From Nitrososphaerota archaeon (GTDB taxonomy: Archaea > Thermoproteota > Nitrososphaeria_A > Caldarchaeales > Calditenuaceae): a stretch of DNA of 32,000 nt. The stretch is taken from the NCBI GenBank assembly GCA_041641295.1, contig JBEPYO010000001.1, positions 485,262 through 517,261 of the forward strand. Direction: 5' to 3'. Below the pieces are notes generated by a model. That model saw only the letters and a program-made list of their open reading frames with translations. It did no database searches and had not been told where the DNA came from. Position numbers and translations under genes: made by a program. Shown here piece by piece: positions 5,762-8,997 of the stretch; within the stretch, counting starts at the first letter, position 1, and each line of letters opens with the position of its first letter.

Positions 5762-5854
5762 ATGAGGAGCGCCTATCTTGTGGCGGTCTTCGCGGGTCTG
5801 GCCGGGCTGGTGCTTGTAGTTCTGCTGCTCTGGAGGCTGGTCGGAGGCCTATAG
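5762..5854 (+). CDS. 30-codon single-TM micro-ORF (MRSAYLVAVFAGLAGLVLVVLLLWRLVGGL)
   Basis: Found by hand; it is below the ORF-track cutoff. The ATG is preceded by GAGGGTGGTG. The product is one hydrophobic helix directly downstream of the oxidase genes on the same strand. Its 3' end overlaps the polB stop convergently. Confidence 0.35.
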   Translation: MRSAYLVAVFAGLAGLVLVVLLLWRLVGGL

Positions 5855-7915
5855 CCACCTCTCAAGCCTAGCGTCTTTCGCTGGATGGTTTATCGAGGCT
5901 CCTATGGCCTCGAAGACCGTCTCCGCCGCCCTCCTGAGATAGGCCCTGTAGTACTCCTTGTCGTATCTCCCCCTGAAGAGCTGTGTGGCCCTAACCCTGA
6001 GGAGGGGGTTTGGATGGCTCTGCGAGGTGATTATGAATCCGACCTCCATCCCCTTCTCAAGCCTTATCCCGAGGGCTTGGAGCTGGGTGGCTGCGGACGA
6101 TTGGGCGAGGCCGCGGCTATACTCTCTTGGGTCTTTTCCCAGCGTCTTCCTTATCTCAAGCTCCTCGACACCTAATCCGCCGTCGATGAGCCCTTCATAC
6201 TCTTCCAGCAGCTTGACGCCCTCCTCAACACCGCGAGTAAGGACCTCTCCGACACTGTCGAAGGACATGAGGGTTCTGATGAGCCGCTCCTGAAACTCCT
6301 TCACTATGGCCGGCGTGTCACTCCTTCTAAGCTCTATACCCCGCGCCTCAACCACCCCTTCGTAGGTTAGGCCGAAATACCTCTTTAGGGCCGGCGTGTC
6401 AGGGTCTGTCCTTAGGCGTGGGAAGGCTATGAACTTGAAGTGCCGGTCGAGGGACATGGGGAGCCCCGTTGCCGCCGATATCTCCTCTGCAAGCCTCTCG
6501 TAGTCCCTCCTCGACGCCCCATTCCTATGGACGAAGAGGGAGTCCACGTCGCCGTAGACTATCTCGAAGCCGTTCTCCTCGGCAACCCACTTGCTTATGA
6601 GCATCGCCTCCCTCGAGACCCTGTTTATCTCCTCGAATGCGAGGGTGTTTCCGAACCTGTTCCAGCAGCAGCCGCTTATCCCATACTGGGTGCAGAGTAT
6701 CAGCTTGAGGGCCTCTATCCTCTCCGTGCAGTAGAGCTCCTCGTCGCTTAGTGGTGGTAGGGTTTTCCTGAGCCTCTTGAGCCTGAGCCGCCTCTCAAGC
6801 CACGGCCGCAGGATTGAGGGTATGAGCCTCCCACTGCCCGAGGGGCTCTCATAGCTTATCCTATGCTTCAGTATGATGCTGGGGTATTGGGAGTCGAAGT
6901 CTAGGGCTGCCACGTTCTCGTGGAGGCCTGGCTTGGGCGTGAATGTCACACCGCCCCGGTCGCGCTCCAAGAGCTCAACCAGACATCTCACCTCCTCCAT
7001 ATACTCGAGCCTCGGCGCGTGGATGCCCATCCTCGCGAGCTCGTAGAGGTTTCGCGAATCAATACACCTGTTGCTGGTCCACCTAGTCGCTAGGCCTAGT
7101 GTCGTGAAGGAGAAGCGGGCCCTCTCAACAAGACCCGCGAGACCATACTCGTCAGGCTCGAAGCCGTAGAAGACATCTCCCAAAAAGACCCTGCCAGCAG
7201 CCGAGCCCTGAGAGAGCCTCCAAGCATCAAGACACCTCCCAACAGCCCTACGGACCTCGGGGCTCGCCAGCCACTCCATAAACGGTCCACAAGAACCACG
7301 ATGAAGGCCGGGAACATAGATTAGATCTGGGTCAAGGCTGGCGATCAGCCTCACCAGCTCTTCCAAGACCCTGTCCTCAGAGCCTTCAACCCACCAGGAG
7401 CTCCTGGCACGCTGTATATGCAGGCCAGCCAACCTCGCACCCGAGTATCTCGGCAAAATCTTTAGGAGTGAGAATGGGGGTGGTCTGATCTCGTCCAAGT
7501 CCTCTAGGCGTTCGGCGGAGACTATCCTGTCCCCCGAGACCGTGAAGACTGCGCGGCTGGATGGCTCGATCTGTAGGCGGTTGAATAGGTATCTCTGGAC
7601 GTGGGGGAGGTCGTCGCCGTATGTCTCCACCGCTAGACCACTACGCTTGACTAGCCTTGAGACGCGGCCGATGCTCCTCGCGCAGAAGGACTCTATCCTC
7701 ACCAGACACCTCCGCTCTGTATTCCTCAGGCCTACAAGCCCCTCGACAACCTTGACACTTCTGACAAGGGGTGACTGCTCGAGGAGCTGGACCAGCTCCC
7801 TCAGAGCCTCGACACTCCGCGGCTCAGCGAGGATGTGTGGGCGATACTCGTCGACCAGTCTCAGAGCCTCTCCGCTAGGCGTCTTAACCCACACAACCGC
7901 CTCGTCGTCTAGCAC
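5849..7915 (-). CDS. polB: family-B DNA polymerase, PolB2-like, exonuclease motifs lost (true 5' end probably upstream of 7915)
   Basis: Polymerase motifs are LDFDSQYPSII (motif A), KLILCTQYG (motif B, degenerate), VYGDVDSLF (motif C) and LKRYFG (KKRY-like). At the Exo I position it reads LLKILPRYS in place of FDIE. At Exo II it reads DPDLIYVPGLHRGSCGPFMEWL in place of YNGDSFDFPYL. Confidence 0.85.
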   Translation of the reverse strand: MLDDEAVVWVKTPSGEALRLVDEYRPHILAEPRSVEALRELVQLLEQSPLVRSVKVVEGLVGLRNTERRCLVRIESFCARSIGRVSRLVKRSGLAVETYGDDLPHVQRYLFNRLQIEPSSRAVFTVSGDRIVSAERLEDLDEIRPPPFSLLKILPRYSGARLAGLHIQRARSSWWVEGSEDRVLEELVRLIASLDPDLIYVPGLHRGSCGPFMEWLASPEVRRAVGRCLDAWRLSQGSAAGRVFLGDVFYGFEPDEYGLAGLVERARFSFTTLGLATRWTSNRCIDSRNLYELARMGIHAPRLEYMEEVRCLVELLERDRGGVTFTPKPGLHENVAALDFDSQYPSIILKHRISYESPSGSGRLIPSILRPWLERRLRLKRLRKTLPPLSDEELYCTERIEALKLILCTQYGISGCCWNRFGNTLAFEEINRVSREAMLISKWVAEENGFEIVYGDVDSLFVHRNGASRRDYERLAEEISAATGLPMSLDRHFKFIAFPRLRTDPDTPALKRYFGLTYEGVVEARGIELRRSDTPAIVKEFQERLIRTLMSFDSVGEVLTRGVEEGVKLLEEYEGLIDGGLGVEELEIRKTLGKDPREYSRGLAQSSAATQLQALGIRLEKGMEVGFIITSQSHPNPLLRVRATQLFRGRYDKEYYRAYLRRAAETVFEAIGASINHPAKDARLERWL

Positions 7916-7947
7916 GTATACGTCGAGGATCCAGCCCTCTATACTCC

Positions 7948-8250
7948 TCAGCCGCCAGACCCCCTCCCCATCTCCCTGAGCCTGGCCTCTATCTCCGCGA
8001 TCCTCTTCTTCAGCTCCTCTATCTCGGCCTTGTTATGTATGTTGGCCGCCAGGTTCATCGAGTCTAGGATGGTTATCTCACCCAAGCCGCCCATCGCAGC
8101 GTGCTCCTGGCCCCAGACCTCCCTGATCAGCGTGTCCAAGGCCCTCCTATGCCTCTCCTCCCTTAGAAGCGGTCTATAGGTCCGCCTAAGCCGCTCCACA
8201 ACCTGCCTGTAGAGCTGTCTGAAGGGAGGGGTAATCCTACCCAAGCCCAC
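7948..8250 (-). CDS. 100-aa Arg-rich protein with C-terminal coiled coil, unknown function
   Basis: The ORF overlaps the upstream gene by 14 nt and ends 32 nt before the polB GTG. The C-terminus KAEIEELKKRIAEIEARLREM shows a heptad-like pattern. I recognise no family. Confidence 0.5.
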   Translation of the reverse strand: MGLGRITPPFRQLYRQVVERLRRTYRPLLREERHRRALDTLIREVWGQEHAAMGGLGEITILDSMNLAANIHNKAEIEELKKRIAEIEARLREMGRGSGG

Positions 8251-8947
8251 CAGCCAGGGGGAGGATCCGAGGGAGACCAGCCGCGGAGCAGGCAGCGAAG
8301 CGTGCTTGACGAGCCTGGCGACTAGGCCCGAGCCCCTCAGGGCGAAAAAACACTATCACTGCAGCCCTATGAATGATCTGGGCCGGGAGCTTGGGCGTGG
8401 CGCGGGCCGGGTCTGGTGAGTCTTCTATGGAGGGGGCTGTGACCACCAGCGGTGCAGAGGCCCTAGAGGCGGCCTCCATGAGGATTGAGACCGACTTGAC
8501 GAGGGCGGATGAGGCCTCGCCGCCCTCCCTATCCAGGAAGGCTGGGGCGTTGTGCATGGCTATGAGCGCCACCCTCCCCCTCTTTCCGATATCCTCTGAG
8601 AGCTCCTCAGCCGCGCAGACCTGCCGCCTAGCGTTGAAGGCCGCGGCGCAGCGTATTGCTGACAGGACCTTGAGGGGCTCTACACCCGCCATCTTCGAGA
8701 CTGTCGAGAGGGATGTGGCGTCGATGAGTGTCTTCTCGCCATAGTAGTCAGTGTTGTTCAGATACGCCACCCACCCGTGCCTCGAGGCCTCAACCATCAG
8801 CCTGTAGAGCACGAGGTCGGTGACCACCCGGTCCCCGTAGAAGATGTGCAGGGCTCCGGGCCTAAGCCCACCTATCAGAGCGTCAAGCCGCTCCAAGCCG
8901 GTTGGTACTGGGCGGCGGAGAAGCATCAGCTCGGAGGCCCGTTTCAT
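8237..8947 (-). CDS. RadA/RecA-fold paralog with degenerate Walker A and B motifs
   Basis: VPTGLERLDALIGGLRPGALHIFYGDRVVTDL aligns to RadA ITTGCSSLDNLLMGGVETQAVTELVGEYGCGKTQ, but GxxGxGKT is replaced by GDRVVTD. The Walker B position reads VALIAMHN with no Asp. GGAGG lies upstream of the ATG at 8947. Confidence 0.6.
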   Translation of the reverse strand: MKRASELMLLRRPVPTGLERLDALIGGLRPGALHIFYGDRVVTDLVLYRLMVEASRHGWVAYLNNTDYYGEKTLIDATSLSTVSKMAGVEPLKVLSAIRCAAAFNARRQVCAAEELSEDIGKRGRVALIAMHNAPAFLDREGGEASSALVKSVSILMEAASRASAPLVVTAPSIEDSPDPARATPKLPAQIIHRAAVIVFFRPEGLGPSRQARQARFAACSAAGLPRILPLAGGLG

Positions 8948-8997
8948 CAAGACTCATCAACGCCTCCGGGGGGAGACCACCCTCCCGGCCCACGCAG

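Follow-up and report, generated by a model that had tools for sequence, protein, structure and literature searches.

Where does translation begin when the conserved N-terminus of a protein is encoded upstream of every canonical start codon in its reading frame? This question is raised by PolB2, a translesion-type family-B DNA polymerase gene in a 32,000-nucleotide stretch of a hot-spring Nitrososphaerota archaeon of the Calditenuaceae (assembly GCA_041641295.1, contig JBEPYO010000001.1, positions 485,262 to 517,261), hereafter the window. The gene lies on the minus strand, directly behind PPB2, which encodes a small helical subunit. The original prediction, drawn from the letters of the window alone, had noted PolB homology upstream of the GTG at 7915-7913, the first canonical start of the polymerase frame, and its coordinates all hold on re-examination. 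The frame is open from a TAA at 8035-8033 to this GTG without an intervening ATG, GTG or TTG, and it contains a CTG at 7951-7949, an ATA at 7942-7940 and an ATC at 7930-7928. The upstream open reading frame (ORF), PPB2, ends at the TGA at 7950-7948 and carries a run of five G residues at 7964-7960. Three explanations had been offered: a non-canonical initiation codon, a -1 slip on the G run, or a homopolymer assembly error. Our analysis supports the first of these and neither of the other two. PolB2 is probably a 700-residue protein initiated at CTG 7951, which was among the codons originally named, with initiation led by a Shine-Dalgarno (SD) element and coupled to PPB2 termination. The proposed coding sequence (5849-7951, minus strand) has 700 codons; it opens with CTG 7951-7949, and its stop lies at 5851-5849. 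Residues are numbered from this codon, making CTG 7951 position 1 and GTG 7915 position 13.

The segment in question, codons 2-12 (R-S-I-E-G-W-I-L-D-V-Y; 7916-7948, minus strand), provides most of beta-strand 1 of the polymerase. In an alignment of 37 PolB2 sequences, every sequence has Gly6, and conservation of Asp10 reaches at least 90%. The profile built from this alignment places the G-W-L-L-D-V-Y block on Met-Ile-Ile-Asp-Ala-Asp-Tyr, the first residues of Pyrococcus abyssi PolB (structure 4flt), which bears out the homology that had been suspected upstream of GTG 7915. The same profile matches archaeal PolB structures at an E-value of 2e-88, and the family-B domain itself is recognized by Pfam (DNA_pol_B, PF00136, E = 3.2e-20). 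An AlphaFold2 model of the 700-residue protein has a predicted local distance difference test score (pLDDT) of 87.4 and a predicted template modeling score (pTM) of 0.81; its first beta-strand spans residues 2-14 at a pLDDT of 96. Within the block, third positions change synonymously among species. Among orthologues with intact 5′ ends, the block lies inside the ORF, 1-5 codons past a canonical start, in all 19 that belong to other genera within the order and in 20 of 21 that are more distantly related. The upstream homology is thus far above chance as judged from these alignments. Because Gly6 is invariant, strand 1 is modeled with high confidence and the block aligns to the N-terminus of a PolB of known structure, the protein includes the segment before GTG 7915, and this segment must be translated.

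The missing start codon is not confined to one genome. Seven species of the genus were compared, namely the genome that contains the window (G000) and six sisters (G002-G007) from different samples and studies, represented by loci L001-L007. In all seven, no ATG, GTG or TTG stands between the upstream in-frame stop and the conserved N-terminal residues. The PolB2 ORF is intact in each and is exactly 700 codons long when counted from CTG. Pairwise ratios of nonsynonymous to synonymous substitution (dN/dS) are 0.14-0.20, with dS up to 1.4. This purifying selection on an intact ORF indicates that PolB2 is expressed and therefore needs a start. The values of dN/dS and the identical length in seven species also rule out the reading that PolB2 is a pseudogene.

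Several lines of evidence point to CTG 7951 as that start. CTG occupies this position in 7/7 species, whereas invariant sites make up only 13% of comparable four-fold degenerate sites. Together with the next base, it forms a CTGA that overlaps the PPB2 stop, and its C is the third base of the last glycine codon of PPB2; replacing it by any of the other three bases would leave the PPB2 glycine unchanged and give PolB2 a canonical start. The neighboring start of PPB2 drifts freely among TTG, GTG and ATG. The PPB2 stop TGA (7948-7950, minus strand) lies 14 nt before the Gly6 codon in all seven species. The codons between CTG and ATA 7942 vary mostly synonymously (AGG/AGA, AGT/AGC), as in coding sequence.

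Comparison with more distant relatives shows that the CTG stands where a start codon is expected. It is positionally homologous to an ATG or TTG start in 15 relatives (L038-L042, L045, L046, L048, L049, L053, L055, L056 and L059-L061). In the relatives of highest identity, which belong to other classes (36-46% identity), the start is mostly an ATG or TTG placed exactly five codons ahead of the invariant glycine, and it often shares bases with the PPB2 stop, as ATGA or TTGA. The relative L041 has an ATGA in the exact geometry of the CTGA in the window. The basal member of the genus, L008, has TTG-AGG-AG at the place corresponding to CTG, and a six-codon insert comes next. In each of the 19 family- and order-level orthologues whose 5′ end is intact, an ATG, GTG or TTG lies two to four codons before the invariant glycine.

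The sequence context of the CTG is that of an SD-led start. The G-rich tract GGGGAGGGGG in the 3′ end of PPB2 (7960-7969, minus strand) contains a GGAGG core at 7967-7963, separated from CTG by an 11-nt spacer. Before canonical starts in this genome, GGAGG spacing peaks at 9-12 nt, and the 3′ end of the 16S rRNA is GGATCACCTCC. The same rule finds no SD element for GTG 7915 and none for ATA 7942, from which GGAGG is 20 nt away. The G run that had been put forward as a slip site is therefore more likely the SD element for CTG. A hairpin pairing this G-rich element with the codons after CTG was considered as a gate for coupling and rejected (z = -0.86, no covariation).

These observations allow a mechanism to be proposed. 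The ribosome would initiate at CTG 7951-7949, presumably with initiator tRNA, and could be placed there in two ways: by the GGAGG element at 7967-7963 in the G-rich end of PPB2, 11 nt upstream, and by the arrival of ribosomes that terminate at the overlapping PPB2 stop, in the geometry that relatives use as ATGA or TTGA. An ancestral TTG or ATG would have become CTG in the common ancestor of the seven species and been kept since. A weak coupled start would suit a low ratio of PolB2 to PPB2; the predicted complex contains them at 1:3. The use of CTG rather than a neighboring codon, the contribution of coupling and the amino acid incorporated are what we infer from the comparisons.

Some results weigh against CTG. 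The conservation of its C is, taken alone, weakly significant given the 13% baseline, and the PPB2 stop places its own constraint on the T and G. Nine of the 19 family- and order-level relatives have their canonical start (GTG, ATG or TTG) at the position aligned with ATA 7942, as does L052 (ATG). Genome-wide, SD elements before in-frame CTG codons are not enriched (8.1% versus a background of 6.5%), and CTGA junctions are not in excess over NTAA or NTAG junctions. A search of the genome for a cause of relaxed start selection found nothing unusual: aIF1/SUI1 is present, and the initiator tRNA is ordinary, with A1 and three G-C pairs in the anticodon stem. In Sulfolobus, aIF1 rejects near-cognate codons, including AUU (review, PMC4705826).

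The alignment of ATA 7942 with these starts speaks for a start slightly downstream, chiefly at ATA 7942-7940 (7940-7942, minus strand). Two codons before the glycine and only 5 nt past the PPB2 stop, this near-cognate codon might be reached by re-initiation a few bases beyond the stop to give a 697-residue protein, and in the same clade CofD seems to use ATC or ATT as its start. We regard this alternative as unlikely, because the position is CTG in L006 and CTC in L007, GGAGG is too far away to be usable, and the three codons from CTG to ATA change as coding sequence would. A start at GTG 7915 (7913-7915, minus strand), as a gene finder would place it, is considerably less plausible still. In the window and in three sister species no canonical start precedes it in the polymerase frame, and its use would give a 688-residue protein without strand 1, the upstream similarity being a relic. 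However, the codon is GTT in three of the six sisters (L002, L006 and L007) and GTC in L008, and in these species the next canonical start lies 13-44 codons past the glycine. The upstream codons also show coding-type substitutions and the invariant glycine, no SD element precedes GTG, and almost the whole of strand E2-14 would be lost through the truncation. The orthologues do not start at the position equivalent to 7915 without the ILDV block, the outcome that would have refuted the original prediction. GTG 7915 is probably an internal valine codon.

The explanation featured in the original prediction was a fusion of PPB2 to PolB2 by programmed -1 ribosomal frameshifting or transcriptional slippage on the G run at 7964-7960. 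A -1 shift at GGG does enter the polymerase frame exactly, as had been claimed, and the run is at least five G residues long in six of the seven species. One natural PPB2-PolB2 fusion has been reported (PMC11791011), and iRadA of the same operon appears to need a change of frame. Like programmed -1 frameshifting in bacterial dnaX and IS elements, the locus has two overlapping frames, the upstream one with a homopolymer close to its end. Unlike those systems, it has no conserved slippery heptamer, no supported stimulatory structure and, in one species, an in-frame stop after the run. That species (G003, HR02) has GGGTG in place of the run and then a TAG as the following codon of the polymerase frame, with only two non-slippery codons remaining before the stop; GGGTG is found at L004 and L033, and no slippery site is conserved. 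Polymerase-frame stops occur upstream of CTG in 4/7 species, and the frame is not conserved as protein. No X-XXY-YYZ heptamer is present, and the local fold (z = -0.86) is not significant and shows no covariation; the minimum free energy hairpin takes in the G run itself, with a covariation term of +0.23 and one compensatory pair. In closer relatives the genes are separate and a start stands at this position, and the predicted mutasome complex needs free PPB2 trimers (PMC11791011). The TAG in HR02 and the stops in four species contradict the fusion, which we consider very improbable. A homopolymer assembly error masking either one fused gene or the loss of a start codon is next to inconceivable. 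The G000 assembly is nearly a single contig and could be based on long reads, but the same frames and the same CTGA junction occur in six other metagenome assemblies that carry different isolate and sample names (BF2, S1, HR02, JZ-1, JZ-3 and SKYB103).

To place initiation at CTG 7951 in a wider context, the 1.56-Mb genome (G000) was scanned for two features, namely stop-start overlaps and coding signal that precedes the first canonical start. Seven CTGA junctions lack a nearby canonical start, and four of these are informative by homology. In three of the four, the Pfam domain begins before the first canonical start: CoxG (G000:C1:397479), with CTG in this genome and three sisters where relatives have ATG, GTG or TTG; Cas7/Csa2 (G000:C1:849217), with CTG in this genome alone and canonical starts in relatives; and CbiQ (G000:C1:323699), with CTG in four species, again this genome and three sisters, and canonical starts in relatives. 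The fourth is PolB2, for which the judgment rests on the orthologue block. Among control junctions (CTA, GTA and TTA), none of six informative cases has a domain before the canonical start. CofD (G000:C1:51817, minus strand) has ATC or ATT in all seven species and ATG in the eighth genus member. Four further candidates rest on Pfam matches that begin 5-27 residues before the first canonical start: Nep1 (G000:C1:287680, minus strand) and a PduO-type adenosyltransferase (G000:C1:697278), each with a candidate CTG, and TrpE (G000:C1:440657, minus strand) and a beta-CASP nuclease (G000:C1:1043536, minus strand), each with a candidate CTG, ATT or ATA start. An SD core is present at six of seven near-cognate sites versus 15% of first canonical starts (binomial P of about 7e-5 by our own arithmetic). 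Because the bulk statistics show no CTG signal, near-cognate starts would be at most rare in this genome, on the order of 1% of genes, and the argument therefore rests on individual genes. Three other candidates, at C1:815545, C1:1203821 (RIO kinase) and C1:282518 (CCA-adding enzyme), were set aside because Pfam was uninformative. Introns in cbf5 are known from Crenarchaeota. The Cbf5/TruB ORF at G000:C1:190645 has no start and lacks the first ~24 positions of the TruB_N profile; it was rejected as a start problem, as it rather looks like a split or intron-containing gene.

A gene outside the window, that for the essential methionyl-tRNA synthetase (MetRS; G000:C1:255074-255116, loci L167-L196), shows a related arrangement. 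No ATG, GTG or TTG occurs from the in-frame stop to the region of the HIGH motif in all eight genomes of the genus and in 23 of 30 genomes across the order. The sequence instead reads GGTGA or GGTGG, then 6 nt, then CTC or CTA; 6 nt is the commonest spacing from GGTGA to a start in this genome. MetRS might possibly start at CUC or CUA, at an unusual adjacent codon, or in an unseen upstream exon. A codon with a single mismatch to a start codon is usually not available either, and a MetRS start here would mean two-mismatch initiation or initiation independent of initiator tRNA. If so, MetRS synthesis might be coupled to the supply of Met-tRNAi. A broader proposal, which we hold only tentatively and consider rather doubtful, is that start choice in the Caldarchaeales/Aigarchaeota is largely dictated by the SD element while the codon is relaxed, with CUG or AUY starts in ~1% of genes, MetRS starting at CTC or CTA 6 nt after GGTGA in those 23 genomes, and the CTG of PolB2 as one visible case.

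A PolB2 gene without a canonical start was also seen in an independent lineage, in a single metagenome-assembled genome of Candidatus Geothermarchaeota (JAUWBL01; L051:2985-3010). There, 24 open upstream codons contain no ATG, GTG, TTG or CTG, and an ATC that overlaps the end of PPB2 occupies the fifth codon before the invariant glycine.

NCBI translation table 11 includes CTG among its start codons. Four-base stop-start overlaps of the ATGA or TTGA type, with translational coupling, are common ground in prokaryotic operons. The PolB2 junction has the identical geometry: ATGA stands at the homologous PPB2-PolB2 junction of L041, and in several other relatives TTGA or ATGA lies a few bases away. 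It differs from these overlaps in that its first base is C, making CTG the restart codon, and coupling here is a proposal. In Deinococcus deserti, non-canonical starts have been proven by N-terminal proteomics for rpsL (CTG), dnaA (ATC) and infC (Baudet et al. 2010, PMC2830850). As in that organism, the near-cognate codon of a conserved gene stands at the very position of the canonical start in relatives, persists across related species and escapes gene finders, and genes of DNA metabolism are among those affected. Unlike the D. deserti cases, which are bacterial, involve an IF3 system and are backed by peptide evidence, the PolB2 start is archaeal (aIF1/aIF2), is proposed from comparative genomics and lies in a stop-start overlap. 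Archaea have been credited with AUG, GUG and UUG starts only (review, PMC4705826). Our literature search on archaeal CTG or other near-cognate starts and on a non-AUG start of MetRS found no archaeal CUG start described.

If CTG is the start, callers restricted to ATG, GTG and TTG would begin PolB2 12 to ~50 codons late in these species. Such a call removes an invariant residue and the first strand and would affect structure prediction, models of the mutasome and expression of the enzyme. PolB2 would also add a well-controlled case to the evidence for CUG and AUY starts in some archaea, because it combines seven species, dS above 1, an appropriately spaced SD element and canonical starts at the homologous position in outgroups. 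For the catalytic subunit of an error-prone polymerase, a start that is weak and coupled is a plausible means of keeping its level low relative to PPB2.

The minus strand of the window carries three genes in the order iRadA (8950-8237), PPB2 (8250 or 8244 to 7948) and PolB2 (7951-5849). The set is the iRadA-PPB2-PolB2 operon, which has been described computationally as the PolB2 "mutasome" (Timinskas, Timinskas and Venclovas 2025, PMC11791011). The window matches that description in having the identical three genes in identical order and a PPB2 with an MGR(I)T N-terminus; MGRT is PPB2's conserved N-terminal arm (PMC11791011). As in the fusions reported there, the upstream PPB2 frame continues iRadA. 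The window differs in that PolB2 has no canonical start in seven species, and neither "start codon" nor "frameshift" occurs in a term search of the main text of that paper. PPB2, the "100-aa ORF" of the original prediction (7948-8244, minus strand), was identified with phmmer, which matched it (E = 1e-11 to 2e-27) to the ORFs that precede PolB2 in 18 relatives. From a comparison of starts, it probably begins at TTG 8244-8242 (M-G-R-I-T, 98 residues) and not at GTG 8250; the position of this TTG is occupied by TTG, GTG or ATG among the sister species. The inactive RadA paralogue iRadA (8237-8950, minus strand) was recognized by homology to an iRadA-PPB2 fusion at L008. The ~35 residues at its C-terminus, which are conserved, are encoded in the frame of PPB2, from about 8352 on the minus strand. 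Sister L008 has iRadA-PPB2 as a one-frame protein; aligned to the window, it matches two frames, which swap in the region of 8340-8352, near a run of six T residues.

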